This document shows positions 6,711 through 60,767 of a stretch of 64,000 nt of DNA, piece by piece; position 1 is the stretch's first letter, and every line of letters starts with the position of its first letter. The notes beneath the pieces were generated by a model, which had not been told where the DNA came from, did no database searches, and worked only from the letters and a program-made list of their open reading frames with translations. This stretch comes from Candidatus Baldrarchaeota archaeon (lineage in GTDB: Archaea; Asgardarchaeota; Baldrarchaeia; Baldrarchaeales; DXJG01), in assembly GCA_019056805.1 (NCBI GenBank), contig DXJG01000007.1, forward strand, positions 1,992 to 65,991, given 5' to 3'. The position numbers were made by a program, and so were the translations under genes.

Positions 6711-6993
6711 TACTTTTCCTCCAAAGTCATAACATTTATTATTACCTATTGTTGTATTATCTACTACTATAATTTAATTCTGGTAATGAAAATGTACTAG
6801 TTTGTATATATAAAAATTTTTGCAACGCGATGTTTTAGTAACATGTTATAACAAAAAGTTATCCTAGTAGTCAATGTAAGTCCGAAAACCACTCAAGAAA
6901 TTAATAAATAATAATTCACAATTTACTGTTCATAAATCGAAACCTTATTATAATATGTATTACCACAAGTCTATATCTTAGTGAAAAATAAGT

Positions 6994-13700: not shown

Positions 13701-15104
13701 TCTCTTGGCACTATAGTTGCTAACAGTTTTTACAATAACACATATGGCATATACATGTTGGAAAGTGAAAAAACTAAGATTGAAGCTTGCAATATACTTG
13801 ATAACACGTGGGGAATATATGTTGAAGGAACTACTCAATGCACTTTCATTTTCCGTTCAAACTTCATTGATAACACCGATCACATTTATGTTGATGAAAA
13901 GGCTCAAGGAAAAATTCAATTTGACAACATAACAATTGGAAACTACTGGGATGACCACAGTGGAGAAGATGCTGATGGTGATGGTATTATTGATACACCT
14001 TATACTATTAACTCGGTAGATAAAGACTATAAGCCGCTAGCTAATCCAGTTACTATCGTAAAAATAGAAGATATATATGGGCCTATGATCACGGACATTC
14101 AAGTCGTGAAAGAAGAGGGAAATGAAAATTACAATTTAACAATATCTGTTAATGTCACTGATGATTCTTGGTTAAGTTGGGTTTTAATGAACGGAACAAT
14201 ACATAATTTGCCGGGTGGAGAAAACTATCCTTTGATGCGTATAATGGTATATTTCTACGATCCCTTTGCTACTATCTTAGGCTATGATAGGTCAAACTTC
14301 AATCTTCTTCCATCAGAAGGATATCCTCTCAAAACATGTACAGCTTCAACTCAGTTCACTTTTCCTCTTAGCTATAAGCCTCATTTCAAGATTTTTGCTG
14401 TGGATACCTATGGGAACTGGGCTGAAAATGACTCTACAACTCCTCATATAACTGGTATATTTTGGGATCCAAGTAGTCCTGAATATGATGAAGAGGTAAC
14501 TGTGTTTGTTCATGTATTTGATCAAAGCAGGATATCTGAATGTTTACTAAGTTACTTTAATGGAACAGAGTGGAATAACGTTTCAATGATATATAATGAG
14601 GAAACAAATGCAATGGTTGGAAGCATTCCAAAACAACCATATGGAGTTACAGTAGAATTCAAGGTAATTGTTAAAGATACTATGAACAATATAGCTGTAA
14701 GTGCAACTTATTCTTACACTGTTAAAGATACTACTCCGCCAATATTGAGAATAATTCAGCCAAGTGGCGGAGAAACAATTTCTAATGATGTTAATGTTAC
14801 TTGGGAGTCCTATGATGAAGGTTCGGGGTTAAAAGAATTCAAAATTTATTTAAATGGAACATTAAAAGCTACTTTGCCCCCTACAACATCCTGTTATCTT
14901 CTATCTAACTTAACACCAGGTTCTTACAATGTTACAGTTGAAGCTGTGGATAATGCTGGCAACCGTGCAACTGCATCAATAGTTTTCAAGTATGTCTCTG
15001 AAGAAGGTGGATTACCTAACTCTCTCATACTCATGGGAGGAACAATAGCCGGTGTTGTAATTATAGTTACAGTGTTTTTAATGAGAAAGAAACTAAAAGA
15101 TTGA
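10782..15104 (+). CDS. Large surface-anchored protein (1440 aa) with parallel beta-helix (PbH1/NosD-like) repeats and Ig-like domains
   Basis: N-terminal hydrophobic segment; central run of repeats of the type IINCKIYGNNIGIYLLNSSFVTISKCNIYDNSIGIY typical of right-handed beta-helix proteins; Ig-like region near the C-terminus; C-terminal TM anchor LILMGGTIAGVVIIVTVFLMRKKLKD. N-terminal ~600 aa may be a glycoside-hydrolase-like domain (weak). Confidence 0.85.
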   Translation: MFHPDFNKKASPTTKLISMLLLLALLLTYCYYPATLFTNTNYPQTTSLLIYRDNETTDSLTKVSYDDENLQEWLSSLRSLEVPAGSPMDIYPVRESIAVDLWPGIYFPEDVEIYKPLIEDLHAQGIKYMIYRNFYMVTDVNYTYLCEYYPGFNASNAGFIDLDGNPYIVDYDPYGTPIFRASTNRPYWQSFLINSTKLAIDAGVDAVVFDVGFGHYPPNELNFDPDSIKDFREYLAEKYTSEELASKFNISDISTFDFGQYLRDLGYNASSLREALTQGTSLGYYADLLWSEWCEFHLKVLVEFYKRLYTEVKEYAQSKGRDFYVFSNIYHGLDPQYNILYLINYVDGIYAEIFFDDLQYPNRTPATVYKVAYSLGKHYIPMTSPSNDSELYPLYIAELFACGSWTGGAGNYTPYFLFVNSHPELFSKEQDGEIGLVYSLASSENYSSFEGAFYLLSDTQRSFDVIVFGDNKWFNESLTLNDLLKYRAILLPNTGYLTDEQVELLLNYAEQGGILIGIGSVGTRNETGEIVNSETRTTFISLFNGSIVSYGSGTVISWTSDIALQYLLQRNTTLLEEFENRLSEVFSPEIITSFTHNTTIFQYWDPESNAMIFHFLNREYDSKNDVITPQHDVSFKFTLRPELDGLPLEIRFYSPNDYFEGIELTYSSDPNGYVEVTIPKVHIWGILRVEAKKKAVQEDLVINSPTVLKDQVIVLNGNLLVNSKLTLENVILKMNSSLDRVFRIEVYEGGELVIKDSVITAYDPKYHYYVKVNKGSRFYMENSELSHAGVWGPMYAGGLWINTDDVIILNCTIHSNYDYGIHVYNASYVEIINCKIYGNNIGIYLLNSSFVTISKCNIYDNSIGIYEKGSYYSTIKHSHISNNLYWGITIWDSLFPLISDSTIHDSVHDGIIIWYSFFAKIYNCKAYSNENGFNIRYTPLVTVSSSEVYNNEEAGLFFFHVELLYGHPLAILDSLGTIVANSFYNNTYGIYMLESEKTKIEACNILDNTWGIYVEGTTQCTFIFRSNFIDNTDHIYVDEKAQGKIQFDNITIGNYWDDHSGEDADGDGIIDTPYTINSVDKDYKPLANPVTIVKIEDIYGPMITDIQVVKEEGNENYNLTISVNVTDDSWLSWVLMNGTIHNLPGGENYPLMRIMVYFYDPFATILGYDRSNFNLLPSEGYPLKTCTASTQFTFPLSYKPHFKIFAVDTYGNWAENDSTTPHITGIFWDPSSPEYDEEVTVFVHVFDQSRISECLLSYFNGTEWNNVSMIYNEETNAMVGSIPKQPYGVTVEFKVIVKDTMNNIAVSATYSYTVKDTTPPILRIIQPSGGETISNDVNVTWESYDEGSGLKEFKIYLNGTLKATLPPTTSCYLLSNLTPGSYNVTVEAVDNAGNRATASIVFKYVSEEGGLPNSLILMGGTIAGVVIIVTVFLMRKKLKD

Positions 15105-37525: not shown

Positions 37526-40500
37526 ATGGTAAACTGCAAATTTGAACTTATAATATATATTACAACATTGTATGCGGGTGTTCTGATGAAAAGGACCATC
37601 TGCATATTAATAATTTTAGTGATGACATTAGCAGCCATTATGGATATAGTTGCCATGCCAGAGATAGATAGCGGGTCCCAGATTATAACTGCAGATAGGA
37701 AAGTATCATCTAACCTTGAAGATGACGTTATAATGTTAAGTAAGAACCAACCGCTTGAAAACCTCACAGCAGAACGTTTTTCAATTATCAGTTCGTTTCA
37801 TCGTGCACTTGGTAACTTTACTGGAGATGATATGCCAGAAGTTGCCTCAATAGCATATATAGACGGTAGAATACATTTCTATGATCTAGTTAATCGACAA
37901 ACGTATGCAATTAACAATGACACAGCTGGACCACAAGCTTGGAATGGTCTAATAATTGCTCGAGGAAATTTTGACCCAGACCCATGGGACGAGGTCATTA
38001 CTATTAACAAGACTGGTATCATAACAATTATAGATGGCAATGCTACAACTATCAAACGCATCGATCTGAACATTACAGAAGATATTAGTAATGTCATGTT
38101 TTTCGAAGTAGTTGATTTAGATCTTAATGGATACTCTGATACAGTAATGCTACTTAGAACAAACACATCGAAGGAAATTTTTACTATAGTAAATGGGACT
38201 CCTAGCGCTACCGAGGTGGTTCCTACAAATTTAACCTTGTCTCTTGCATTGGATGTAACTATAGGCAACTTTGCAGCCAATGATGGATTAGAACTTGCAA
38301 TTGTATATTCTGACTATACAGTAACCGTATATAATTATACATTTCAGCGTCTTGTGAATAGTACTATTCCTAATGTTTGTAGGATAGCAACTATAAGCAA
38401 CGCATCTTGGCACTATGATGCCCTTATTGCACTACTTTTAACCACACCAAAAAATGTAACTATTTACAATGCAACCACGCTAACGCCGCTTGGCTACTCG
38501 ACGTTAGTCGACTTTTATTTGAATGTAAAACCAAAGGCAGCTGACCTTGATGACGACAAAACAAATGAAGTTATAATTCCTACAGCAGATGGATTTGCAA
38601 TTTTTGACCTAAACACAAATAATATTACAAAAACAGCTATTCTATTTACAAATAGCCCAACATATCTTATTACATCGAAAATCACTAGAGACCAGACCTA
38701 TGACTTTGTAATTGGCAACAATGAAGTTCTATTCATGTTTAAGGGTGTCAAGGGTAGTGTTGCAAAGCCGAGAATTCTGCGAAAAATTTCTGAGCCTTCC
38801 TATATTCAGACATGTGAAGTATGGCAATACGACACTGGCTTACCGGATCTTTTCGTTCTAACCGATCTAACTGATTTTTCTCTTTATGTTTATAGGTCAG
38901 ATTCTAGTGCGCCACGTCTTAGTGATTTGAAAGTCTATCCTACTAGACCAACAGTTGATGATAGCTATGTTTCTATTTCAGCAAAAATCATCGACGAAGG
39001 TGTTTTTGATAATCCTGTTTTAGTCTATAACATTACTACGGTCAGTGGTACACTTTTAGAGCAAGGAGAAGTTTTAATGGTATCAGAATCATATATGAGT
39101 GATACCTATCTTGTTTATCTTTCGGATTTAAAAGCTGGGACATATACTTTCAAAATTATTGTAACTGACAGCTACGATAATAGAGCGATTTACGATAACA
39201 ACGGTTCCCTATATACATTCAATGTTTACAGTAAACTTCTGTTTCGAACAACGCTTCAAACGGTTACCTTGACCGCCCCTACTATAACTAGTGATCATCC
39301 AATGGATTTAGGTAAGCTGGATGGAGATCAATATGATGATGTAGTAATTGGAGTTTCAGATCATGCAGAGATCATATGGGGTAACCATAGCGTTACAATA
39401 CTTGATACATGGGCTGATGTAGACAATGTGGAAGTATATGTTGCGAATCTGCTAGCTGGTTCAAACGACGATATATTAGTTTACTATTATAATGTTACAA
39501 GCTCTCAGTATCAAATTAATATTTATGACGGTTTTTCACTAGAGGTATCAAAAAGATATACGTTCACCTCGGAAGTTCAGAATTTTGCATTTGGCGATGT
39601 TGACGGTGATGGATATGAGGATTTAGTGTTTAGTTTAGATGTAAATACTACACACGACAAACTCATCGTAATGAATACGGTAACCAGTGTAACTTTGCTA
39701 GAAAAAGAAATTATAAACACCCTTTACGTTGGAGTGTTCAATCTTACAGAAGACCAATACATGGATGTTATTGCGGTATCATTTGACTCCTCAACTAAGA
39801 TACTTAATTTAACTGCTTATGCTGGTGAACAAAATTTAAACATGATATACTTTTTCAACCAGTCTTTCCCAAGCGACGAAGATGTATATGAAGTGGTGGT
39901 TTTTGTCGATAACTTCATAACAACTGAATATTTGCAGGTTGCACTTGCCACAGGTTTATCGGGACATGACAAAATATTTTTATTGAACGCTAGTAACGGC
40001 TACTATTTAAAAGAGCGCGAAATACCATATATAACAGGACTGACTCCTGTTGATTACGGATTCGATGGGATCAAAGAGATATCCCTTATTTTATACGATA
40101 ATTCACTGATTATAGTTAGTTTGGCTAACGAATCCTTCAGTTTTAAGAAAGATTCGTTACTCCCAGAAACGCCTATTTCAACATTTTGGGATCATTTCGA
40201 TGAGGATAATTATAAGGACTTGATATATGTTCTATCTGATGAGATCGCTGTATATTCAATTGCTGAGGATCGTTTCGAAGTTGTACAGTATCCGTTCAGA
40301 ATGATACATTCGGCGAGTATTGGTAAATTCTTTGAACTTCCAAGCAAAGACATCTGTTTCCTTACGTATGACTTGATTTTTGAAAAATACATAAACATAA
40401 ATATGTTCTATAGACCAAACATTACTTTGTCCCTTAGCAACAATATTGTAGCTCAAGGCGAATCCACCGAGGTAATCGTAGAGATTAGAAACGTGTTTGG

Positions 40501-42442
40501 AGATCCTGTCACTGAAAGCGATATACTGGGAATTCTTGAGTTGGATGGAAGTGTTTTGCAAACAAGTAGCTTTACTTCACATGGAAATGGTATATACAGC
40601 CTTACTGTTAGTGCAACGAACATGCCTTTAGGATACTACAATCTCTCTGTGATTATAGATGATCCCTATTATGGTACTTTCACGTTCAGTGAAAATCTTA
40701 CGGTTACGGGTCAAATAGATGGCGTACTTATAAGCCCAGATAAAGTTCCACAAGGCGGATTTGCACTACTAAATGTAACTCTATCAGATCAATATGGGTA
40801 TCCTGTAACAAACGCGATCGTCAACATTACTTTCAATGGGCAGGTTTACACACCCGATAAAATCATTAGAAACATGTATCTCTTCAAGATATCAACAGAG
40901 AATTTGTCTGTTGGACTATATACCATTATGGTTACGGCGGATCATGAATTAACGCCGCCGATACAAATAAATTCTACTATTAGTTTAACGGGGATTCCCC
41001 ATGTTTCAGTTAGGGGAAACGGAATTACAGAGCCTCCTGTAATTCAAGGGACAGCATTCGATGTAGCTTTGGATTTGTATGATGAATACAATTATACAAT
41101 TGATGGTGCAACTATAATTGCATATTTCTTTGGAAAGCCGTACACATTTACGGACTTAGGAAATGGAACTTATATTGCTAATGTACCCACGGAAAATGTA
41201 CCAGGAGGTATACACTCTCTCTTAATAGAAGTGAATCATGATTACCTTGAAAGACAAGTGTTTAGGGTAAATGTAACTGTTATAGGTAACATAAACCTAG
41301 AGGTGACTATTTCCCCGGATTACATTGAACAAGAGTCTACGATGGAAGTTAGAATAGTGGCTGTTGATGACTTTGGGTATCCGATAATAGGTGCAAATGT
41401 TAGAATTCTATTTGCAAATGAAACTTACACTGCTGAGAACATAAGGGACAATATATATGTCGCAACAATAAATGTAGGAAAAATATACCATGGTGAATAC
41501 CCACTTACAATAGAGGTTAACGGACAATTCTACACGACAAAGATTGCAGTGGAGACAGTATATGTTTATCCGAAGATACCAAAACTTGATTTATCACCAC
41601 AAACATTAATGACATTACTGGGAATTTCAATGGGTGTTTCGTTCGTAGGTTTATCATTATACTATGGCATTTCATCAAAATTGACTAGGAGTCTTTCAGT
41701 AGATGAAAGACAAAGACTACTTATGAGTTTCAAACCCTTAGACCTTACCTACTTTGCACTTGCCCTACTTCTGTTCGGTACGCTTGGAACTGCAGGCTAT
41801 CTTTACATAAAAGAATTCTACGAGTTAGCTGTGGCAGTTCTAGGGCTGGCATTAATGGAATTGTTATTAGTATATGGTATATGGCTTTACAGAGACGCTG
41901 CATATACACTAGTTACTGAGAAAATGTCTATTAAACGGGCTGTTGCAAGTTTATGGCACATAGTTTTAGCACCAATGATAGTACTAGGGATATTTGAATG
42001 GGGAGCGAACATCGAATGGTTTGCATACTATCTTCTTGGAGAAACAATAAACCTTGGTGTAATAGAGTTACCGTCACTGTACGTCAGTCTATTAGGTACT
42101 TACATTACTTCAATAATAGTTTTAGTTGCAAACATTTACCTTAATTCGAGAAGACTGAAGAACAGATTCCGTGAAATGAGAGTGGGTGGAACACCGGAAA
42201 AGGTAATAAACGAAGAGAAGATTATACAGCTTGGTAAAATGTCTAGTTCGATTAGAATTAAGTTCTTCGGTTTCCTTGTAATTCTCGGTGCAAGCTTAGT
42301 TTCAACGACACCGCTGCTACAGTACTATCAGTTAGGCGTTGTTGTAGTTCTTCCACTGATTTTCATAGTAGTAATTCCATATATAGTTTCTAAGATTCTA
42401 GGTGCACTAGGATTTACAAAGAGAACTATAGAAAGAGGATAG
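37526..42442 (+). CDS. Giant surface protein (1638 aa) with FG-GAP-like and Ig-like repeats and a polytopic C-terminal membrane domain
   Basis: Signal peptide (MKRTICILIILVMTLAAIMDIVA); D-x-D/N-G-D-G-Y-x-D motifs (DLNGYSDTV, GDVDGDGYEDLVF, LDGDQYDDVVIG); Ig-like repeats; last ~270 aa contain about 6-7 hydrophobic helices. Likely true start is the ATG encoding MKRT (about 60 nt inside the ORF). Confidence 0.85.
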   Translation: MVNCKFELIIYITTLYAGVLMKRTICILIILVMTLAAIMDIVAMPEIDSGSQIITADRKVSSNLEDDVIMLSKNQPLENLTAERFSIISSFHRALGNFTGDDMPEVASIAYIDGRIHFYDLVNRQTYAINNDTAGPQAWNGLIIARGNFDPDPWDEVITINKTGIITIIDGNATTIKRIDLNITEDISNVMFFEVVDLDLNGYSDTVMLLRTNTSKEIFTIVNGTPSATEVVPTNLTLSLALDVTIGNFAANDGLELAIVYSDYTVTVYNYTFQRLVNSTIPNVCRIATISNASWHYDALIALLLTTPKNVTIYNATTLTPLGYSTLVDFYLNVKPKAADLDDDKTNEVIIPTADGFAIFDLNTNNITKTAILFTNSPTYLITSKITRDQTYDFVIGNNEVLFMFKGVKGSVAKPRILRKISEPSYIQTCEVWQYDTGLPDLFVLTDLTDFSLYVYRSDSSAPRLSDLKVYPTRPTVDDSYVSISAKIIDEGVFDNPVLVYNITTVSGTLLEQGEVLMVSESYMSDTYLVYLSDLKAGTYTFKIIVTDSYDNRAIYDNNGSLYTFNVYSKLLFRTTLQTVTLTAPTITSDHPMDLGKLDGDQYDDVVIGVSDHAEIIWGNHSVTILDTWADVDNVEVYVANLLAGSNDDILVYYYNVTSSQYQINIYDGFSLEVSKRYTFTSEVQNFAFGDVDGDGYEDLVFSLDVNTTHDKLIVMNTVTSVTLLEKEIINTLYVGVFNLTEDQYMDVIAVSFDSSTKILNLTAYAGEQNLNMIYFFNQSFPSDEDVYEVVVFVDNFITTEYLQVALATGLSGHDKIFLLNASNGYYLKEREIPYITGLTPVDYGFDGIKEISLILYDNSLIIVSLANESFSFKKDSLLPETPISTFWDHFDEDNYKDLIYVLSDEIAVYSIAEDRFEVVQYPFRMIHSASIGKFFELPSKDICFLTYDLIFEKYININMFYRPNITLSLSNNIVAQGESTEVIVEIRNVFGDPVTESDILGILELDGSVLQTSSFTSHGNGIYSLTVSATNMPLGYYNLSVIIDDPYYGTFTFSENLTVTGQIDGVLISPDKVPQGGFALLNVTLSDQYGYPVTNAIVNITFNGQVYTPDKIIRNMYLFKISTENLSVGLYTIMVTADHELTPPIQINSTISLTGIPHVSVRGNGITEPPVIQGTAFDVALDLYDEYNYTIDGATIIAYFFGKPYTFTDLGNGTYIANVPTENVPGGIHSLLIEVNHDYLERQVFRVNVTVIGNINLEVTISPDYIEQESTMEVRIVAVDDFGYPIIGANVRILFANETYTAENIRDNIYVATINVGKIYHGEYPLTIEVNGQFYTTKIAVETVYVYPKIPKLDLSPQTLMTLLGISMGVSFVGLSLYYGISSKLTRSLSVDERQRLLMSFKPLDLTYFALALLLFGTLGTAGYLYIKEFYELAVAVLGLALMELLLVYGIWLYRDAAYTLVTEKMSIKRAVASLWHIVLAPMIVLGIFEWGANIEWFAYYLLGETINLGVIELPSLYVSLLGTYITSIIVLVANIYLNSRRLKNRFREMRVGGTPEKVINEEKIIQLGKMSSSIRIKFFGFLVILGASLVSTTPLLQYYQLGVVVVLPLIFIVVIPYIVSKILGALGFTKRTIERG

Positions 42443-48962: not shown

Positions 48963-51935
48963 CTAGGCTTCCGAGGTATTTTCTGAAATTTTTGATACTT
49001 CAGTTTCATGTTTGGAATGTTGCGGGTATATTATGAGTAGTTCTTTATTTTCCTTTAACTTTAGCACCGTTTTGTATAATTTTATTCTCTCTGATTTTGG
49101 TAATTTTTCAAGTTCTTTTGCTAATTTTGGCATGTAAAAGAATTGGTCTTGATTTGAAATTTTTTGAATGATTTCCTTTAAGGAGCTAGGTATTTTTCTA
49201 CTGTCTTCTATCTTGTACATTGCCAAATTTTCTTTTCCAAAGATCTCATATATGATCTCCTCTGTGCCATTAAAAACTCCTAAGTCTCCTCTCCAATTAT
49301 TAAAAACATCTTTGAATTTTTCTTCGAATTTTTGTGTAATTTCTCTAATTATTTCTTTATTTTTAAGTTTCTCAGTTGAAATAGCAATTGTATATGTGTG
49401 CTCTCCAGAGGAACATGTTAAAAATCTTGGCTCTGGATCTCCATATGATATCTCATCAAGATATCCTACTTTACCGTTACTAAGTTCTGTGTAAAATGTT
49501 TGAACAGCTTGTATGAACCCAGCTATTAATTCAGGACTTCTTTCCTCGCCACCAAAAATTTTAACGTCTCTTACTGGAAGCCCGCTCCTTTTCTCAACTA
49601 ATAATATCTCTTCTATCGATGAAATGGAAGATAAGTGTTCTATTTCATTAATCAATTTTGCGATTGATTTTTTTCTGTGCACAAAGTAGACAGATGAAGA
49701 AAAGAAGAAAAGAAATAAGAAAATAAGTTCTTTGAAATATTGTTTAACATTTTCTTTCACTTTTTCCAGTATAGGAGCTAAGGATAAGTATGGTGTTATT
49801 TCTATGGTTTTTTCCTCCGATTGTGAAGGTAAATATTCTCTACTTCCATTAAAGTACACTATTATTGTTAGGTTTCCAGCTGTTTGCATTTTAAAATTGT
49901 AAAAAGCTTTGCCCTCGTTATTAGTTACAAGCGTTTCATTCCACTCTCTAGTTGTACCGTTTAAGGAAGTGAATTTTAACATTAAAATTAATTCTTTACC
50001 TGGGACCCCTGTTCCGTTAATATCTGTTAGTGTTATTTCAATTCCTATGTTCTTCCCGACAGAGGCTTTTGAAGGAGCTTCAAGAATTATCCTTGTTGGA
50101 ATAGGATAAATAAGATTTAGGGTTATATTTACATGAGTTTCTTCATAATATTCTTTTATTACGTATATTGAAACGTTATACATTCCTTCTGTTAATCCAT
50201 TTGTACCAACTATGCCCTCGTAACAGTTTGTTATGTTATTATAAGTGAATTGAATTGTTCCTTTTATCCATTTTCCGTAAATATTTGCATCTGTTATATT
50301 CTCTCCGGTTATGCCATCGACACATCTAACTTTAATGGTTATATTTTCTCCTAAAAGATAATATTCGCTTAGATTTTCAACTATAATCTTTATGGTGTAG
50401 AAAACGGAAAATGTACTTATTCTATACCCTATTTCCGTTCCATTGTAGAATAGTATTGCTACTTTGTATTCTCCTTTTTCCACGTTTTGAGGTATCCATG
50501 TGAAATTACTGCCTTCACTTATGTTCTTCGTTTCTTCATGAATTTTCACGTCAGTTACGTTGTATATTGCCATGGTTAAGTTTCCATTTGAAACTGTTAC
50601 TGTTGATTTCCACTGTACAGAAAATTCTATTTTGTGGTTTATCGTAACATTTGCTGGGTGGTCTAAACTTTTTATATAGTTTATTCCTTGAAAAATTAGA
50701 AACCATGGATCACTCATATTTACTGTTATTAAGTTTTCCTGTCTATCTATTACGTTATTTGTATTGTTTTGCAATGTCCAGTCTGATGGAACATGGAATT
50801 TCGTGCTACAATTCAAATAGCCGCTGGGAAAAGTGTAAGTTGAGTTAACATACCATGTAACATTATCATAGTTTGTGTTAATGAAACAAGATGTGTGTAA
50901 CAATTCTTCTTTTAAATGAGTAGTTTCACATGTGATATTAAATTTAAGTAACCAACTTGCCGTAACATTTAAAATTACGGGATCTTCAGTGATAAGATTC
51001 GTAAAAGTCCATGTTCCATTTTCATTAACTGATATATTATTTACTTTTAATTCATAGTCTTGAAAACTAGTTAATAACGGGGAAAGATGGACATATTGCA
51101 AAAAATAGTCTACATCTTCAGGTATGAAACTATTAGAATCAGAGTCGTAGTAGTATGCATATCCTTCATCAACTCCGTCGGTTGAAGCTGCTGGTGTAGA
51201 ATCATTATATGCCAGCCAACATACGTCTTCACTTGCCGTTAAGGCTCGAGCATATAGGTGCAAGAAGAACGTGTTATCGTAGGTTTTTGATGTGTCAAGT
51301 AAAAGGGGTGGATCGATTGTTATGTTTAATTGTAAGTATTGTGTTCCACTAATACTCATAATTGTGGTGTTGCTGATGAGCGTGGTATCTGGGTACGGTA
51401 GAATCTGCTCTTGAATTATTGTTCCTGTCGCATTCATTATAGCCCAGTCAATTGTTATTCCAGATATCACAGAGATGTTTAACTTTACTTCTAAACTCGT
51501 AAGATAACATATGCGAGGAACTCGAAAAGACATTACTCTTGGATAATCTCCAATAGAAATATTTCCCAAGGGAAGAGGGTCTTCAGGGTGTTGCATTTCT
51601 ATTTCTTTTGTTAGATTTTGCGGCTCTATATTTGTGAAGTTTAAAGCTATCTTTTCTGTGTTAAACCCGTGGGTTACAATATTTAGCGGGCTATAAAATG
51701 CGTCATTTTTTGCATCGAGAGACCTAACATGTGTTGTTTCATTATTTATCCAGTTTTTGATTTGTATTGCTGTTAGGTTTGAATGAATAATTCTATCACT
51801 AGACAAGGTAAAATTTGAAGTACATTGGGAAGGAAATGTTGAATTGGCTAAAACCTGTGGAGGGCTCATTATTGCGAAAAATATTAAAATTACTACAAGA
51901 AGTGTTAAAGTCTTCAGTTTTTCCACCAGAGTCAC
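48963..51935 (-). CDS. Large surface protein (990 aa): signal peptide, ~700-aa extracellular region, single TM, ~240-aa cytoplasmic tail with roadblock/longin-like domain
   Basis: N-terminal MTLVEKLKTLTLLVVILIFFAIMSPPQVLA; hydrophobic helix IFLFLFFFSSSVYFV followed by HRKK at ~aa 725-745; tail IEEILLVEKRSGLPVRDVKIFGG...LIAGFIQAVQTF...NNWRGDLGVF is homologous to the C-terminus of the 7032..9194 protein. Confidence 0.85.
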   Translation of the reverse strand: MTLVEKLKTLTLLVVILIFFAIMSPPQVLANSTFPSQCTSNFTLSSDRIIHSNLTAIQIKNWINNETTHVRSLDAKNDAFYSPLNIVTHGFNTEKIALNFTNIEPQNLTKEIEMQHPEDPLPLGNISIGDYPRVMSFRVPRICYLTSLEVKLNISVISGITIDWAIMNATGTIIQEQILPYPDTTLISNTTIMSISGTQYLQLNITIDPPLLLDTSKTYDNTFFLHLYARALTASEDVCWLAYNDSTPAASTDGVDEGYAYYYDSDSNSFIPEDVDYFLQYVHLSPLLTSFQDYELKVNNISVNENGTWTFTNLITEDPVILNVTASWLLKFNITCETTHLKEELLHTSCFINTNYDNVTWYVNSTYTFPSGYLNCSTKFHVPSDWTLQNNTNNVIDRQENLITVNMSDPWFLIFQGINYIKSLDHPANVTINHKIEFSVQWKSTVTVSNGNLTMAIYNVTDVKIHEETKNISEGSNFTWIPQNVEKGEYKVAILFYNGTEIGYRISTFSVFYTIKIIVENLSEYYLLGENITIKVRCVDGITGENITDANIYGKWIKGTIQFTYNNITNCYEGIVGTNGLTEGMYNVSIYVIKEYYEETHVNITLNLIYPIPTRIILEAPSKASVGKNIGIEITLTDINGTGVPGKELILMLKFTSLNGTTREWNETLVTNNEGKAFYNFKMQTAGNLTIIVYFNGSREYLPSQSEEKTIEITPYLSLAPILEKVKENVKQYFKELIFLFLFFFSSSVYFVHRKKSIAKLINEIEHLSSISSIEEILLVEKRSGLPVRDVKIFGGEERSPELIAGFIQAVQTFYTELSNGKVGYLDEISYGDPEPRFLTCSSGEHTYTIAISTEKLKNKEIIREITQKFEEKFKDVFNNWRGDLGVFNGTEEIIYEIFGKENLAMYKIEDSRKIPSSLKEIIQKISNQDQFFYMPKLAKELEKLPKSERIKLYKTVLKLKENKELLIIYPQHSKHETEVSKISENTSEA

Positions 51936-52087
51936 CGTAAGATATACTACTTTTCACTTTCATCAATTACTACTATTATTATAACAATATTATATAAAAT
52001 CATTTTAGCCATTGTTGTAAAGTTAAAATTGATATAGAAAACCAGATTCAAATATTAGTGAATTCTTGAAAAGCGGGATGAACCCTG

Positions 52088-52624
52088 ATGAAGAAGGAAA
52101 ATTTCACAAGTGTTGTTAAGAAAGTTCTTGAAAAGGAAGGAAAGTATATTAGTGGTAAAAGGAATGCAGCGGTTTTGGTCCCTTTAAGTATAGATAAGGC
52201 GCTTTATATTACATTTATAAAAAGGTCTAAAAATCTACAATTTCACAGAGGGGAAGTAGCGTTTCCTGGTGGTCTAAGAAAAAATAATGAAAGTCCTTTG
52301 GAGACAGCTTTTAGAGAAGCATGGGAAGAATTGAGAATACGGAAAGAAAATGTAGAAGTTCTTGGTTTTCTTCCTCCAACAGAAACTAGAACAACTAATA
52401 TTTACATTGTACCTGTTGTTGGATTAATACCGTTAAACTATCCATTCAAACTAAATAAAAAAGAAATAGAAAAAGTAATGCAAATTCCTATCAAAGAACT
52501 ATATAAAAACGTGTACGAAGATTTTTATGGAAAATATTATTTACATGATGGCTATAAAATCTGGGGAGCAACTGCAAGAATCTTGACAACCCTCTTAAAC
52601 AAGCTAAAAACAATAATCAAATGA
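52088..52624 (+). CDS. NUDIX hydrolase (CoA pyrophosphatase-like)
   Basis: Nudix box GGLRKNNESPLETAFREAWEELRI. Confidence 0.88.
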   Translation: MKKENFTSVVKKVLEKEGKYISGKRNAAVLVPLSIDKALYITFIKRSKNLQFHRGEVAFPGGLRKNNESPLETAFREAWEELRIRKENVEVLGFLPPTETRTTNIYIVPVVGLIPLNYPFKLNKKEIEKVMQIPIKELYKNVYEDFYGKYYLHDGYKIWGATARILTTLLNKLKTIIK

Positions 52625-52801
52625 TATCCCTATTTTCCATCAAAATATACTGAATTTAGTTTTTCCTTAAAAATTGTGATCCGTTTATTGGACAATTTCG
52701 ATTAATACAAACATAGTTACCTCAATTATTAAGTTTTAATTTCGAAGTTATTGATTAATCTTAATAAGGTTACAGTGTGTTATTATTTCTTGGTGTTTTT
52801 G

Positions 52802-53323
52802 ATGGAGATCAAAATTGGTGAATTGTTTAAGGAAGCTATGGAACACCCTTCGAAAGAATCCATTATTATGATGTCTGAAGGACTTGAAAAATTTGTTTTA
52901 ATGGTTATTAACGCTCTTGGAATTTTAGAAGAAAGAATTATCAACTTAGAAAATGAACTAAAATCTCTAAAGGAGACCATAGAATCAAAATTAAAGATAG
53001 AAAAAATGGAAATCCCACCAGCAAAACCTGTTCAAATTCCTGAATCAAAACTTCCTCCCTCACTTCCACCAGTTCCCTCCAAACCTACAGAAGAAATAGT
53101 TAAACCACCTACAAAGCCTCCTAAGGAGATAAGTGCTCCTAAGACTGTCGGGCCTGAAGAAAAAGATATTGAAGCCTTTAGAAAAGGATTGTTAAAACCT
53201 ACACCGAAAATTGAGGAAAAGGAGAAAAAACCTGTCTCTCTCAGAGATGCTCTTATGCAAGAATTAAAAAACTATTTTAATACTGCTATGAAAAAGGTTC
53301 GTAAAGAGGAAGTAGAGGAATGA
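52802..53323 (+). CDS. Hypothetical protein with coiled-coil and Pro-rich linker
   Basis: Start set at the internal ATG (MEIKIGELF); central PPAKPVQIPESKLPPSLPPVPSKPTEEIVKPPTKPPKE. Confidence 0.5.
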   Translation: MEIKIGELFKEAMEHPSKESIIMMSEGLEKFVLMVINALGILEERIINLENELKSLKETIESKLKIEKMEIPPAKPVQIPESKLPPSLPPVPSKPTEEIVKPPTKPPKEISAPKTVGPEEKDIEAFRKGLLKPTPKIEEKEKKPVSLRDALMQELKNYFNTAMKKVRKEEVEE

Positions 53324-53328
53324 AAATT

Positions 53329-54246
53329 CTAGGATAATATTTTTAGTACTTTTTCTTTTATTTCTTGAAGTGATGATAGAAGTTTTCCTAGTTTAAAGTC
53401 TCTTTCTTTTAGTATTGAAAACATAGCTATTTCATCGCTTATGTTGTAAACTGCGATGTATTCTCTTTTTATATGCCACAGTGCTAAGTCTGCTGTATCA
53501 AAGGTTATGTATCCGCTTTTACGTAGTTGCGAGAACATTGTTCTCACCGTCTCGATAGGTTTTATTAGAGATTTTGCAGATACATATTTTAGTTTCTTCG
53601 GGTTAATGAGTTCTTTGCTTATTGCTGAAGCTATTTCTAAACCGTCTCCCTTGTTTAGAATGAAAGATGCTAAGGCTTTTTGTTTTTTATTGAATTTTGC
53701 TAAGATTTTATGGATTTTCTCAGCCACTTCTTTTGCTTCTTTGGAAAGAACGCTATCTAAGAGTTTACAAACAACCGTTCTAGCTGTTCCCTCTGGTATA
53801 GATGTGGCCTCAACAACCACATTATGATTTCCAAATATTTTTCGTATTTCCTTTATGGAAATCTTTTTTATATCATATTTGCTGGCTAAAACGAATATTC
53901 TTGCATTCGGAGAATATTTTTTAAGATATTCTAGGGCTTTAAGATATTCTTGTTTTGCTTCATCGATTGTTTCTTTGTTAGAGGAGTCTACTACGAAGAA
54001 GAATGCACCTACGTTTGAAAATATTTTTCCTGACCATTGATCTGTGAAATATTTGTATATGAATTGTTTTTGTCCTCCTACATCAAAAGTTGTAACTTCT
54101 AATAAGCCTCTATACTTGTATGTTTTTGTACTTACAAATTCTGTTGGTTCTAAGTTCTTTACATCGTCCCAGTCTTTCCCTTCAAAAACATGTTTAACCA
54201 AAGATGTTTTTCCAGCTGCTCTTAACCCCATTATTAAAACTTTCAT
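53329..54246 (-). CDS. Small GTPase of the Arf/Sar/Rag-like type with a ~140-aa C-terminal extension
   Basis: G1 GLRAAGKTS, G3 DVGGQ (the form seen in Arf/Sar and Rag families), G4-like ASKYD; start set at the internal ATG (MKVLIMG). Confidence 0.85.
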   Translation of the reverse strand: MKVLIMGLRAAGKTSLVKHVFEGKDWDDVKNLEPTEFVSTKTYKYRGLLEVTTFDVGGQKQFIYKYFTDQWSGKIFSNVGAFFFVVDSSNKETIDEAKQEYLKALEYLKKYSPNARIFVLASKYDIKKISIKEIRKIFGNHNVVVEATSIPEGTARTVVCKLLDSVLSKEAKEVAEKIHKILAKFNKKQKALASFILNKGDGLEIASAISKELINPKKLKYVSAKSLIKPIETVRTMFSQLRKSGYITFDTADLALWHIKREYIAVYNISDEIAMFSILKERDFKLGKLLSSLQEIKEKVLKILS

Positions 54247-54376
54247 TTTAAACAACCTTTAATGCTATTTCAAAACTTGAATTTAATTTATTTACTTCTA
54301 AATAGAGTATATACTTTTCTATTAGAAACATATTATTACAATTAAAAATGTAGACTTCATTTGCAGAATTTCAACT

Positions 54377-55741
54377 TTAAGACGCAATAACGTAGGTAAT
54401 TGAGATTAAACAAAAGTTGATTAAAATATATAGAAGCAAGATTATTATTCCTCGTTTATTCACTAATTTTCCTTTAGAAGACCCTAAATATATTAGGATT
54501 CCAGAAATAAAGCTTAGAGTTGCATAGTGAATTTCTGAGGGATCAGGAAATTTTGGATAGAAAAGTTCTGGAATAAGTAGGGTTGGTAAATTCACTACTT
54601 TAAGCAATAGAAGTAGAAGTTCGATGAAAATCAAGATGAGACATGTTTTTGACAATTTTTCTCTAACCGTTATTAGCGAACATATGAGAAGTGAAGAAAT
54701 TAGCATTAATGTTAATGTGAAGAGATTATAGCCTACATAAATTAGATAGGTGATTATACAGAGAGATATTATAATTATGAGGTCTCTATATGGAAAACTT
54801 ATTCTTTGAGTGATTCTTTTGGCTTTTCTACTGCCTAAAGTTCCCATGGAAATAAGAAATCCGGATAGTAAGGCTAAAAATATGTATATATAGAAACTTG
54901 AGGTTATAGTCGCAGGAAAAGGCTGCAGACCTTTAATGACTGTTAAATTAAATAATTTTGTAGCTATTGCTTGAGAAGAGGTTAAAGCAAGTTCAACTAT
55001 AACTAATACATATACTAAATATAGTGGCCAGTCTTTTCTAGCGTATAAGTTGAAAAGAAGTGCTCCCCAAGTTGCATAAAATATTATGGTTGTAATTTCA
55101 TACATAGCAAATGAAAATGTAAGTAACACCATACCTAGGATGAATATAAGTCCCCTTATTGGTAAAGGTGACTCAGAGATCTCTGAAATTTTCCTATCTA
55201 CCTTTTCGACTAAGGCTGGCCTTTTTAATGGTTGAAATAATTTAACGTGTTTCTTATCTTCTACTTTTGGGGACAATGGTTTTTTGAGAGATTTCAATTG
55301 TTTATAGAAGGATTTTAATATTTTTTGATAATTGCTCCAGTTTTCTTGCATTTTTGATATAACATTTGATAACTTTTCTTTTACATCCTCTGAATCTTCA
55401 ATTTCATCTGCAATTATGGCCAAAGCGTATATTTCCTTACCTCCTCTAGCTTCTTCAGACTCTATATAAAATCTTTTAGCTAAACATTTGGTACCTGAAA
55501 TCGAGAACAAAGTGTATTCTAGTTCCTCCCCCATTCCAATCGCGTTTTTTGCTATTTTCTCTAAAATTTCGGGTTTTCGTGCAAAAAGTCTACCAGGATA
55601 TTTATTTACTGGTATGAAACCTTTAACTTCATCAAACTTACATAGAACTAAACCCTTTAGGTTAACTTTTCTATCTTTTACAGATTCTTCCACCTTAAAA
55701 TTACTTTCACTGGACTTTTGATTCTCTTTATTATTTGTCAA
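54377..55741 (-). CDS. Membrane protein with N-terminal cytoplasmic alpha/beta domain (possible roadblock/longin-like) and C-terminal polytopic region
   Basis: N-terminal ~150 aa hydrophilic (GLVLCKFDEVKGFIPV...EIYALAIIADEIEDSEDVKEKLSNVISKMQENW), then about 8 hydrophobic helices. Lies immediately upstream of, and on the same strand as, the GTPase gene. Confidence 0.75.
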   Translation of the reverse strand: MTNNKENQKSSESNFKVEESVKDRKVNLKGLVLCKFDEVKGFIPVNKYPGRLFARKPEILEKIAKNAIGMGEELEYTLFSISGTKCLAKRFYIESEEARGGKEIYALAIIADEIEDSEDVKEKLSNVISKMQENWSNYQKILKSFYKQLKSLKKPLSPKVEDKKHVKLFQPLKRPALVEKVDRKISEISESPLPIRGLIFILGMVLLTFSFAMYEITTIIFYATWGALLFNLYARKDWPLYLVYVLVIVELALTSSQAIATKLFNLTVIKGLQPFPATITSSFYIYIFLALLSGFLISMGTLGSRKAKRITQRISFPYRDLIIIISLCIITYLIYVGYNLFTLTLMLISSLLICSLITVREKLSKTCLILIFIELLLLLLKVVNLPTLLIPELFYPKFPDPSEIHYATLSFISGILIYLGSSKGKLVNKRGIIILLLYILINFCLISITYVIAS

Positions 55742-55940: not shown

Positions 55941-56831
55941 TCATGCTATTGTAAGTGTATAAATTCCAAGAATAATAACTGCAATGCCTAGTAAACGTAA
56001 CTTATCAAGTTTTTCTTTAAGAACTGTAGTTCCAAGAATTGTTGAGAATAGCGGGGAACTAGAGGCTATTATAGTAGTTTTAGCCACACCTATCAGATTT
56101 ATTGCAAAAAGGAAGAGTAGTGATCCAAGTCCTATCGCAAAAATACCCCCGATCGAGAGAACGAGTAGGGTCTTTTTATCCATGCTTTTGAGCTCCTTTT
56201 TCCGTCTCTCTTTAGATAATATTAGTAGCCATACGATTATGTTAAGAATTAATAGCCTTACAAGATTTAAGAAGACGGGAGATACACTTAGGAGAACAAT
56301 TTTAAGAATTGTCATACTTATACCCCAAGAAAGGGAAGCCATTATTGCAGCAATTAAACCTCTAACCATGTGTTTACTCTGACTGTTTTCAGCTTTGAGA
56401 AACAATAAAAATACCCCTAGTACAACAAGTATAGCGCTTATGAAGGTCCATATGTTGATAGTTTCTTGTAAGAAGAAGTATGCGAAAATTGCGACAAAAA
56501 GGGAATATGTATAAGAAACTGGATGTCCTATTGCTACACCAGCATCTCTAATAGCCACAAGAAATAAGGAATCGCCAAGAAGAATGCCGAAAGAAACATC
56601 TACTACTATAAGTAAGAAAAGCCATACGGATAAATTATGAATTTGATATATTTCGCCCATAATTGCTACTGCGGCAAGCATAAAAATTAGGCTTGGAATT
56701 GTTCTAATGCCATTTGCAACTATTACATCTGAGTTTTCTGTTTTTAACCCAACTTTATAAAGTACTGTTGCTAAAGACCACGAGATCGCTGTTAATAAAC
56801 TTAACACAATCCCAACTTCTACTGTATGCAA
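55941..56831 (-). CDS. EamA/DMT-family transporter (copy 1)
   Basis: 296 aa, about 10 TM helices in two homologous halves; paralog of 59877..60767. Confidence 0.85.
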   Translation of the reverse strand: MHTVEVGIVLSLLTAISWSLATVLYKVGLKTENSDVIVANGIRTIPSLIFMLAAVAIMGEIYQIHNLSVWLFLLIVVDVSFGILLGDSLFLVAIRDAGVAIGHPVSYTYSLFVAIFAYFFLQETINIWTFISAILVVLGVFLLFLKAENSQSKHMVRGLIAAIMASLSWGISMTILKIVLLSVSPVFLNLVRLLILNIIVWLLILSKERRKKELKSMDKKTLLVLSIGGIFAIGLGSLLFLFAINLIGVAKTTIIASSSPLFSTILGTTVLKEKLDKLRLLGIAVIILGIYTLTIA

Positions 56832-59876: not shown

Positions 59877-60767
59877 TCATGTTATTGCGAGTATATAGAT
59901 TCCAAGGATAATAGTTGCTATACCTATTGTACGTGGTTTATCGAGTTTTTCTTTAAGTATTGCAACTCCGAAAATTGTTGAAAAGAGTGGAGAACTTGAG
60001 GTTATTATTGTAGATTTCGCTGCACCTATCAAATTTATTGAGAAAAGAAATAATAGTGCTCCGAGACCTATTCCAAGAATACCACCAGCTAACAGAACAG
60101 TTAAACTTAATCTCCTCAAATTCTTAATTTCTTTCCTCTTACTTCTTTTGGGTAGTATTAGTAGCCATACAATTATATTAAGAACAATTAACCTTACAAA
60201 GTTAAGGAAGAGAGGCTCTATGTTTAGAAGAAGAACTTTGAGAATGGGTATGCTTGTACCCCAGCAAAAAGCAGCTAACAATGCTGCAATTAATCCTTTA
60301 ACCATATGATTATTTTGATTTCTCTCCGCTTTGAAAAATAATAGAAATATTCCTGAAACGACGAGTATAGCGCTTATGAAGGTCCATATGTTGACGGTTT
60401 CTTGTAGGAGGAAGTATGCAAAGATTGTGACAAAAAGAGAGTACGTATATGATACTGGGTATCCTATTGCTACACCAGCATCTCTTAAAGCTATGAAAAA
60501 CAAGCAATCACCAAGTAAAATACCTAGGGAAACATTTACTACTATAAGGAAGAGAAGCCATGAGGTTAGTTTGTTAACTTCGCTTAATTTTCCCATGATT
60601 ATTGTTACGAGAAATATAAAGATTAAAGCTGAAACGGCTCTAACACCATTTGCAACTATTACATCTGAATGTTCTTCTTTCAACCCAACCTTGTAGAGCA
60701 CCGCTGCCAGTGACCATGAAATCGCTGTTAATATGCTTAACAGTATTCCAATTTCTTCTGCAAGCAA
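59877..60767 (-). CDS. EamA/DMT-family transporter (copy 2)
   Basis: Roughly 65 percent identical by eye to 55941..56831 (ILTAISWSLA.VLYKVGLK...HSDVIVANG.R, GDSLF/GDCLF, RDAGVAIG.PVSYTYSLF). Confidence 0.85.
   Translation of the reverse strand: MLAEEIGILLSILTAISWSLAAVLYKVGLKEEHSDVIVANGVRAVSALIFIFLVTIIMGKLSEVNKLTSWLLFLIVVNVSLGILLGDCLFFIALRDAGVAIGYPVSYTYSLFVTIFAYFLLQETVNIWTFISAILVVSGIFLLFFKAERNQNNHMVKGLIAALLAAFCWGTSIPILKVLLLNIEPLFLNFVRLIVLNIIVWLLILPKRSKRKEIKNLRRLSLTVLLAGGILGIGLGALLFLFSINLIGAAKSTIITSSSPLFSTIFGVAILKEKLDKPRTIGIATIILGIYILAIT

Follow-up and report, generated by a model that had tools for sequence, protein, structure and literature searches.

A RagA/Gtr1-type GTPase gene beside a gene for a membrane-anchored longin protein in a Baldrarchaeia-like archaeon: a candidate Rag switch

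In a 64-kb stretch of contig DXJG01000007.1 from a Candidatus Baldrarchaeota archaeon (hereafter the window), the gene for a small GTPase of the RagA/Gtr1 type is preceded on the same strand, 130 bp upstream, by a gene for a 454-amino-acid (aa) membrane protein, the cytoplasmic head of which is predicted to be a longin domain of the class found in FLCN, NPRL2 and DENN proteins. A third gene, convergent with that of the GTPase, encodes a 173-aa protein that is conserved at this position in relatives and is assigned a putative role from there; the three genes form the core of the module described here. We favour, with a probability of roughly 0.55, a membrane-anchored switch of the Rag GTPase-activating protein (GAP) type, in which the longin-bearing transmembrane (longin-TM) protein is a candidate GAP for the RagA-type GTPase.

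Rag GTPases and their longin-domain GAPs, GATOR1 and folliculin, are at the core of eukaryotic lysosomal amino-acid sensing. NPRL2-like and FLCN/SMCR8-type longins are already known from Asgard archaea (10.1101/2020.10.19.343400; PMC12290439), those of the FLCN/SMCR8 type being predicted GAPs whose partner GTPases are an open question (PMC12290439). Asgard Rag-like GTPases with fused roadblock/longin domains are also known (PMC10933270; 10.1101/2020.10.19.343400; PDB 8zla, 9m28, 8yl2). Asgard GTPase genes generally do not lie in operons with longin or roadblock genes, and partners are hard to assign (PMC10933270); in the sole conserved operon reported, a DENN protein is encoded together with a roadblock protein resembling LAMTOR1 and a GTPase that is Rab-like and expressly not of the Rag type (10.1101/2020.10.19.343400). 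The present locus offers a specific, testable pair for the stated question of which regulator serves which Asgard GTPase. It also offers a longin fused to a membrane domain, accompanied by a conserved third partner. Such a transmembrane fusion goes unmentioned in PMC10933270, PMC12290439 and 10.1101/2020.10.19.343400, and a literature search returned no description of the GTPase/longin-TM pairing, the publication on the LokiRag structures, which possibly concerns related pairs, lying outside its scope.

The GTPase and its longin-bearing neighbour

The GTPase carries the motifs G1 GLRAAGKTS, G3 DVGGQ and G4 SKYD, the last being HKxD in Rag proteins, and has a C-terminal extension of ~138 aa. 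Its Pfam score is 95.6 bits for Gtr1_RagA (E 3.8e-27; cut-off 22) and 66.9 bits for Arf. As a single query against solved structures it retrieves Gtr1 (1.8e-14), RagA (8e-13) and Arf1 (4e-11), with the G domain alone aligning. A profile built from 18 family members (314 positions) reaches much further, matching human RagA at E 1.4e-32 in a single collinear HMMER stretch (profile 2–283 on RagA 9–293 of 313) and yeast Gtr1 at E 2.3e-32, again collinearly (profile 2–300 on Gtr1 5–304 of 307). Both matches run from the G domain on through the C-terminal roadblock domain (CRD). The next matches, LokiRagM (7.8e-20) and LokiRagO (6.7e-16), are confined to the G domain, and below them stand Arl3 (5e-15) and, over the full length, RagC/Gtr2 (~2e-10). 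A profile of the CRD by itself found the Gtr1 CRD as its top match in the PDB, at a weak E of 0.37, and three of 17 CRD sequences matched Pfam MAPKK1_Int (PF08923, the family of the roadblock protein LAMTOR3/MP1; best E 3.4e-5).

The profile evidence thereby identifies a full-length RagA/Gtr1-type protein, consisting of a G domain and a CRD. An earlier, sequence-only reading of this DNA had described the protein as Arf/Rag-like with an extension of ~140 aa; the Rag half of that description stands, and by profile comparison the extension is the CRD of Rag proteins. The protein terminates in ...KILS, without a cysteine for lipidation, which is consistent with the reported lack of prenylation signals in Asgard small GTPases (PMC10933270). 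Members of the Rag/Gtr family work as heterodimers of one A/B-type and one C/D-type paralogue; the window contains a single Rag-like gene, that of this GTPase.

The adjacent 454-aa protein opens with ~195 hydrophilic residues, after which hydropathy places about seven TM segments within residues 198–449. AlphaFold2 modelled residues 22–165 with a mean predicted local distance difference test (pLDDT) of 80.8 and a predicted template-modelling score (pTM) of 0.77. The model has strands at 28–37, 41–48, 76–81, 84–94 and 102–111, and helices at 58–67, 118–133 and 135–150, an order (beta-beta-alpha-beta-beta-beta-alpha-alpha) that is the canonical longin topology. The sequence-only reading had placed this head in the longin/roadblock range, which the model and its Foldseek matches bear out; the beta-beta-alpha-beta-beta-alpha pattern it proposed fell one strand and one helix short of the model.

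In a Foldseek search of the PDB, ranks 1–5 were all NPRL2/Npr2 chains of GATOR1 and SEACIT (1.2e-5 to 6e-5), followed by FLCN in its active GAP complex (3.5e-4), DENND10, and more NPRL2 and FLCN entries. Structure comparison of the model scored highest with the longin of a Lokiarchaeal Roadblock-Longin protein (12.9), then with FLCN and DENND1A (12.2 each), NPRL2 (11.5), Npr2 (10.9), and FNIP2 and NPRL3 (~10), with SNARE and adaptor longins at ~9 and roadblock proteins at ~7. Because of this ranking, the modelled head is assigned to the FLCN/NPRL2/DENN class of longins, distinct from a generic roadblock. Pfam gave faint matches to Folliculin (0.048) and DENND11 (0.071), both over residues 86–154. 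The ~7 TM helices stand in the place of a DENN domain; residues 198–449 matched no Pfam family and no recognisable transporter family.

Two motifs are common to all longin homologues, (A/V)RGGxxxY(A/S)(L/I) and G-[FY]-[IVT]-[PA], in a comparison that included Helarchaeota proteins (37–43% identity over the longin) and a soluble 399-aa protein from a third lineage (29%). The arginine of the first, R99, is invariant in every homologue that covers it, whether Baldrarchaeia-like, Helarchaeota or third-lineage, and sits in the model in the loop between beta4 and beta5. The glycine of the second, G41, is likewise invariant and is the first residue of beta2. A BLASTP alignment of the window longin with human FLCN, over FYIESEEARGGKEIYALAII, pairs R99 with FLCN R164 at a weak E of 0.036; the numbering obtained, R164, agrees with that of the published catalytic residue. 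The pairing is a lead that agrees with the Pfam Folliculin match, and is no independent test of it.

GAP-type longins (FLCN, NPRL2, SMCR8) combine an arginine finger with a GP motif that sits where the beta1–beta2 loop ends or beta2 starts, and some Asgard longins carry both (PMC12290439). The position of R99 points to the site of the FLCN arginine finger and, together with its invariance, predicts a candidate catalytic role. The same invariance points to a GAP-type regulator rather than one of the MglB or Ragulator type. A roadblock/longin regulator comparable to MglB or Ragulator had been the original suggestion; the longin fold survives from it, while the class, FLCN/NPRL2/DENN with an arginine, points instead towards a GAP. 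The MglA/MglB and Arf/ArfGAP analogies were themselves ruled out, as the GTPase is of the Rag type over its full length.

Gene neighbourhoods in related archaea

All three open reading frames on which the sequence-only reading was built, those of the GTPase, the 454-aa protein and a 990-aa surface protein, are present on the minus strand, with the G motifs and membrane topologies it described. Its remark that the gene content resembled Asgard archaea also holds, since the GTPase and the membrane protein both have their closest homologues in that group: the nearest named ones belong to Candidatus Baldrarchaeia (85% identity), and those of Helarchaeota and Promethearchaeota come next (~50–55%). 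By this comparison the source lineage is Asgard and Baldrarchaeia-like. The locus recurs in NCBI GCA_002010035.1 and in one Logan assembly.

Contigs of relatives (labelled L001 to L019) were used for a synteny comparison of about a dozen loci, which are phylogenetically non-independent. All five Baldrarchaeia-like contigs (L005–L009) keep one order: the membrane protein (66–100% identical), a gap of 125–130 bp, the GTPase, and the convergent 173-aa gene. A longin-profile scan of species-representative genomes added five Helarchaeota-type loci, each encoding a longin-TM homologue of ~310 aa in which the membrane domain is homologous too; at four of these loci, a gene for a CRD-bearing Rag-like GTPase lies 2–5 kb from the longin gene, on the opposite strand. 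In a third lineage (L015, GTPase 42% identical) a longin homologue again lies 2–5 kb from a Rag-like GTPase gene. This homologue is the soluble 399-aa protein, and its gene is divergent from a two-gene operon. The upstream gene of that operon encodes a surface protein of 1038 aa (Laminin_G_3, fn3, a single TM helix and a tail of 67 residues), and its stop overlaps the GTPase start. The co-occurrence of GTPase and membrane-protein genes that the sequence-only reading looked for is found as adjacency in L005–L009 and as proximity of 2–5 kb in two further lineages. GTPase–longin proximity recurs in three lineages with differing gene orders, and is not universal. Within the L015 region (1377..6954), the 399-aa protein has a ~260-aa C-terminal domain.

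The spacer between the membrane-protein and GTPase genes is atypical of an operon junction and is itself conserved. Over the ~100 nt at its 3' end it hardly varies among contigs in which the flanking proteins are only 66–86% identical, and it contains a T-run after the membrane-protein gene, a short palindrome (TTCAAGTTTTGAA), an AGGT Shine-Dalgarno-like site, and a conserved element resembling a transcription factor B recognition element and TATA box (BRE/TATA), GAAAA(A/G)TATATAC, ~60 nt before the GTPase ATG. The GTPase gene is probably under its own regulated promoter, and the spacer could be a dedicated promoter with an operator. Such a conserved promoter leaves co-transcription with the membrane-protein gene open. 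A scan of the spacer for bacterial-type promoters and terminators did no better than on shuffled sequence and is inapplicable to archaea.

The third gene of the module was missed by the sequence-only reading; no other neighbour accompanies the GTPase as consistently. Its reading frame spans 52751..53323 (+), and in relatives the gene is called as 173 aa from M18 (52802). It is convergent with the GTPase gene, the two stops being separated by 5 bp in the window and overlapping by 4 bp in relatives. Homologues lie tail-to-tail with every orthologous GTPase gene examined (the window, L001, L002, L003, L007, L008, L017, L018 and L019), and are absent beside paralogous GTPases. The protein has an N-terminal helical or coiled-coil region with a conserved MxINAxGxxE, then a Pro-rich linker, and ends in a conserved motif, FRKxLLKPxP...KPxS(I/L)RxxLxxE(L/M)KxxF; it matched no Pfam or NCBIfam family. 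Its position makes it the foremost candidate effector or scaffold of the GTPase. A WH2-like reading of the C-terminal motif was dropped, as Pfam gave no WH2 domain at E<=10.

Further arrangements were seen around Rag-type genes in the relatives. Helarchaeota contig L001 (8001..11953) has convergent genes, within ~2–3 kb, for two Rag-type paralogues, each sharing 35% identity with the family of the other. Between them lie the small partner gene and a gene for a 438-aa protein with repeats that look TPR-like by eye; the two paralogues could be a RagA/RagC-like heterodimer pair. Divergent from a paralogous Rag-type GTPase gene in L010 (11767..12387), L011 (11878..12384) and L013 (10294..10935) is a gene for an unannotated protein of ~170–210 aa, two of the three running off the end of the locus, with an N-terminal coiled coil and a conserved C-terminal EFVRPTY(I/V)(H/Q)RAF...LRV(S/A)K(D/E)ARP... 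motif. In L002, L017, L018 and L019 the GTPase context includes a giant surface protein and a GIFT-domain (IFT52_GIFT) protein, and a stand-alone Robl_LC7 gene lies ~2.5–6.5 kb downstream of the GTPase.

A candidate GAP switch and competing explanations

In the mechanism we propose, the longin-TM protein would tether an FLCN/NPRL2-like GAP domain to the cell membrane, where the longin would act, probably, as a homodimer, as does the Lokiarchaeal longin of PDB 8yqg. It would dock on the GTP-bound GTPase, and Arg99 from the beta4–beta5 loop would enter the nucleotide pocket and stimulate hydrolysis. Equivalent roles are filled in eukaryotes by NPRL2 Arg78, which stimulates GTP hydrolysis by RagA, and by FLCN Arg164, which does so for RagC. 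The ~7-helix membrane domain would stand in for the DENN domain or complex partners through which eukaryotic GAPs reach the lysosome, and may make GAP activity responsive to a membrane or ligand signal. The 173-aa protein would read the state of the GTPase or scaffold it.

Several observations weigh against this mechanism. The longin model is supported by a shallow alignment of seven sequences (72–78% identical). A longin profile searched against PDB sequences picked up nothing but coiled-coil noise, and an hhalign comparison with NPRL2 gave no match; since no sequence-profile search arrived at FLCN or NPRL2 with significance, the fold assignment is based on structure comparison. The GP motif is incomplete, G41 being followed by F or Y with the proline two residues later, and in most Baldrarchaeia-like sequences this later proline is Ala. 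Eukaryotic longin GAPs act as heterodimers with a second longin protein, and the neighbourhood of the 454-aa gene contains no second longin gene. Strict adjacency is confined to fairly close relatives and could be inherited synteny, a promoter-like element parts the two genes, making their link positional rather than a proven co-transcription, and housekeeping genes lie between the longin and GTPase genes in Helarchaeota. Five loci with orthologous GTPases (L002, L003 and L017–L019) have no such longin within 8–10 kb, one of them, L002, being on a contig that stops 1.4 kb upstream of the GTPase and leaves that side unsampled.

The 454-aa protein also stands outside FLCN/NPRL2 proper. Pfam finds in it neither a DENN domain nor the NPRL2-specific C-terminal domain, and the missing second longin subunit and incomplete GP motif tell the same way. 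By analogy, it plausibly works like FLCN or NPRL2 without being an orthologue of either.

Of the alternatives, the one that survives best makes the longin-TM protein an anchor, a platform or a guanine-nucleotide exchange factor (GEF), in the style of Ragulator, a DENN GEF or Mon1–Ccz1, with the arginine serving structure or binding. We consider it doubtful: the five top Foldseek matches are NPRL2/Npr2, which is the catalytic GAP subunit for RagA/Gtr1, the arginine is invariant at the FLCN-finger loop position across homologues that are ~30% identical, and the weak Pfam Folliculin match falls on the same segment.

A second alternative, which we regard as unlikely, holds that the two genes are neighbours by inherited synteny, that the GTPase works with the 173-aa protein and with regulators encoded elsewhere, and that the longin serves another GTPase. 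It gains from the conserved promoter-like element of the GTPase gene, and from the five orthologue loci lacking a nearby longin, all of which have a 173-aa homologue. It gains too from the upstream slot in the Helarchaeota group (L002 and L017–L019), which is filled by a different gene, encoding an unrelated protein of 196–198 aa, 13–33 bp from the GTPase and without a homologue in the window; Asgard genomes, moreover, encode many GTPases and longins (10.1101/2020.10.19.343400). Yet proximity occurs in three arrangements (adjacent; 2–5 kb apart on opposite strands; divergent across an operon), which are hard to derive from one inherited order, and in class the two partners, a RagA-like GTPase and an NPRL2/FLCN-like longin, match those paired in eukaryotes.

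The closest parallels are GATOR1 (NPRL2–NPRL3–DEPDC5), acting on RagA/B, and SEACIT (Npr2–Npr3–Iml1), acting on Gtr1. Shared with these are a full-length RagA/Gtr1-type GTPase, a longin best matched by NPRL2/Npr2 in Foldseek, and a conserved arginine in the beta4–beta5 loop. In the present system the NPRL2-specific C-terminal domain is missing, neither NPRL3 nor DEPDC5 has a counterpart among the neighbouring genes, and the longin is fused to a polytopic membrane domain, whereas the eukaryotic systems use recruitment by KICSTOR and Ragulator. FLCN–FNIP, the GAP for RagC/D, differs through its DENN domain and FNIP partner, neither of which has a counterpart here; the GTPase is nearer to RagA than to RagC, and the GP motif reads G-F/Y.

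Among archaeal systems, the described Asgard FLCN/SMCR8/NPRL2-like longins are of the same class and carry an arginine finger, but are soluble, DENN-fused or fused to two-component signalling domains, whereas the present one is membrane-anchored and encoded beside a RagA-type GTPase. The Asgard Rag–roadblock fusions (PMC10933270) and the solved LokiRagM and LokiRagO (PDB 8zla, 9m28, 8yl2) share the GTPase-plus-roadblock/longin architecture, yet the family here fits RagA/Gtr1 (1e-32, full length) far better than it fits LokiRagM or LokiRagO (8e-20 and 7e-16, G domain). MglA–MglB likewise joins a prokaryotic small GTPase to a regulator of the roadblock/longin superfamily, as is proposed for the candidate here; it differs from the present Rag-type GTPase and membrane-embedded, arginine-bearing longin in that its regulator is a roadblock homodimer, and no stand-alone roadblock gene adjoins the GTPase in the window. 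The lysosomal amino-acid transceptor SLC38A9 is alike in concept, as a polytopic protein with a cytoplasmic N-terminus that acts on a Rag GTPase. It has no sequence or fold kinship with the 454-aa protein, in which the N-terminus is a folded longin and the membrane part belongs to no recognisable transporter family.

If the longin-TM protein does have GAP activity, the Rag–GAP relationship would be older than eukaryogenesis, and the locus would suggest how such a switch is kept at a membrane with neither lipid anchors nor a scaffold of the Ragulator type. A more far-reaching version, which we consider rather unlikely, is a minimal prokaryotic Rag nutrient switch running from a polytopic transceptor, which would sense a solute or the state of the membrane with its ~7 helices, through its fused GAP longin to the RagA-type GTPase and on to the 173-aa partner. 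Were this so, the Rag–GATOR1/FLCN axis would predate lysosomes and TOR, and would have begun as a plasma-membrane sensor in Asgard archaea, in which no TOR kinase has been reported (10.1101/2020.10.19.343400).

The 990-aa surface protein and other features of the window

The 990-aa protein consists of an N-terminal hydrophobic segment (12–30), ~700 further residues, a TM helix and a 238-aa tail. Ig-like matches (Big_3_5, Big_1, Filamin) were weak, below the cut-off, and all within residues 620–714. A word-indexed homology search with the tail gave no match. A paralogue of the tail exists in the window, as the C-terminus of a 720-aa protein (BLASTP 4e-11, phmmer 8e-12), which a deep profile of the tail family matches at 4e-51. 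In the 720-aa protein, a helix-turn-helix-looking segment precedes the roadblock-family domain.

Exhaustive HMMER searching with the two window tails retrieved 2,962 cluster representatives, 311 of them at E<=1e-10. The family, which is not in Pfam, is found in many protein contexts: frequently it follows a membrane region at the C-terminus, and it also makes up free-standing proteins of 100–190 aa. A profile of 21 tail sequences searched against the PDB placed dynein roadblock LC7 in all of the top six positions, at marginal E values of 0.0077–0.06, and aligned with LC7 collinearly over 85 columns, covering the whole 96-residue protein; the longins TRAPPC1 and AP-4 sigma appeared lower among the matches. 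Individual members gave weak Pfam matches to Robl_LC7 (three of the 21), Sybindin (0.0012), Fuz_longin_1 (0.0018) and Intu_longin_1, and hhalign comparisons of the family with the longin alignment and with the Rag CRD alignment were not significant. AlphaFold2, given a two-sequence alignment, modelled the tail with a pLDDT of 45, the helical part at ~905–969 alone being moderately confident, and a Foldseek search with this model returned no significant match, its top entries being Rag CRDs, roadblocks and longins. The sequence-only reading had called the tail roadblock/longin-like; on marginal profile matches it probably belongs to that superfamily, and the structure model, with its pLDDT of 45, lends no weight to the claim.

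That reading had gone on to propose outside-in control, with the 990-aa protein sensing the exterior and its tail regulating the GTPase. Such a role is compatible with the other readings, and draws on the superfamily membership of the tail, on the recurrence of large single-pass surface proteins near RagA-type GTPases (as in the stop/start overlap of L015) and on giant proteins ~2 kb upstream of the GTPase in L018 and L019 with a TM helix and a partial roadblock-family match. We nevertheless hold it to be very unlikely, for the 990-aa gene is absent at the corresponding position in L007 (where a helicase fills the slot), L008 and L009 (EamA in both), the L015 surface protein has a short tail without a roadblock-family domain, the tail model is poor, a NUDIX gene and the 173-aa gene intervene between the 990-aa gene and the GTPase, and the domain family is huge, the window alone containing four giant surface proteins and two roadblock-tail proteins. 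At such a density the chance expectation is high, and proximity to the GTPase weighs little. The 990-aa protein, being neither kept syntenically in the closest relatives nor from a small family, is probably not a member of the conserved module.

The four giant surface proteins are encoded at 258..6710 (-), 10782..15104 (+), 37526..42442 (+) and 48963..51935 (-), and are 2150, 1440, 1638 and 990 aa in length; beta-helix/NosD repeats occur in one of them, and Ig-like domains of the invasin/Big_1 type in one. Membrane proteins with a roadblock-family C-terminus are also encoded in L013 (119..1201) and L014 (1717..2766), 3–5 kb from longin-TM genes, that of L013 being polytopic and, by eye, possibly MFS-like; given the family size, this proximity may be due to chance.

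Table 1. Coordinates of the module and of related features in the window, with the evidence for each.
Feature	Position	Strand	Evidence
RagA/Gtr1-type small GTPase, 305 aa from ATG	53329..54246	-	Pfam and family profile
GTPase G domain, residues ~1–167	53746..54246	-	G motifs, profile
GTPase C-terminal roadblock domain (CRD), residues ~168–305	53332..53745	-	Profile against RagA/Gtr1; LAMTOR3/MP1 matches
Predicted membrane-anchored FLCN/NPRL2-class longin protein, 454 aa	54377..55741	-	AlphaFold2, Foldseek, hydropathy
Predicted longin domain, residues 28–150	55292..55660	-	AlphaFold2 model
Candidate arginine finger R99, codon	55445..55447	-	Invariance, beta4–beta5 loop
Polytopic membrane domain, residues ~198–449	54395..55150	-	Hydropathy
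Spacer between membrane-protein and GTPase genes, 130 bp	54247..54376	-	Conservation across contigs
173-aa candidate partner gene	52802..53323	+	Convergent with GTPase; homologues at same position
Single-pass surface protein, 990 aa	48963..51935	-	Topology, tail-family profile
TM helix of 990-aa protein, residues 734–752	49680..49736	-	Hydropathy
Probable roadblock/longin-superfamily tail domain of 990-aa protein, residues ~765–905	49221..49643	-	Marginal profile matches
720-aa polytopic membrane protein, tail-domain paralogue	7032..9194	+	BLASTP, phmmer, tail-family profile
Roadblock-family domain of 720-aa protein, residues ~578–712	8763..9167	+	Homology to 990-aa tail

Elsewhere in the window, the genes at 55941..56831 (-) and 59877..60767 (-) encode paralogous transporters of the EamA family that share 67% identity over 295 aa. 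They flank a 3-kb segment with LysE-like, methyltransferase-like and Nmad3 genes, the LysE and methyltransferase labels being taken from syntenic Pfam calls in L007.

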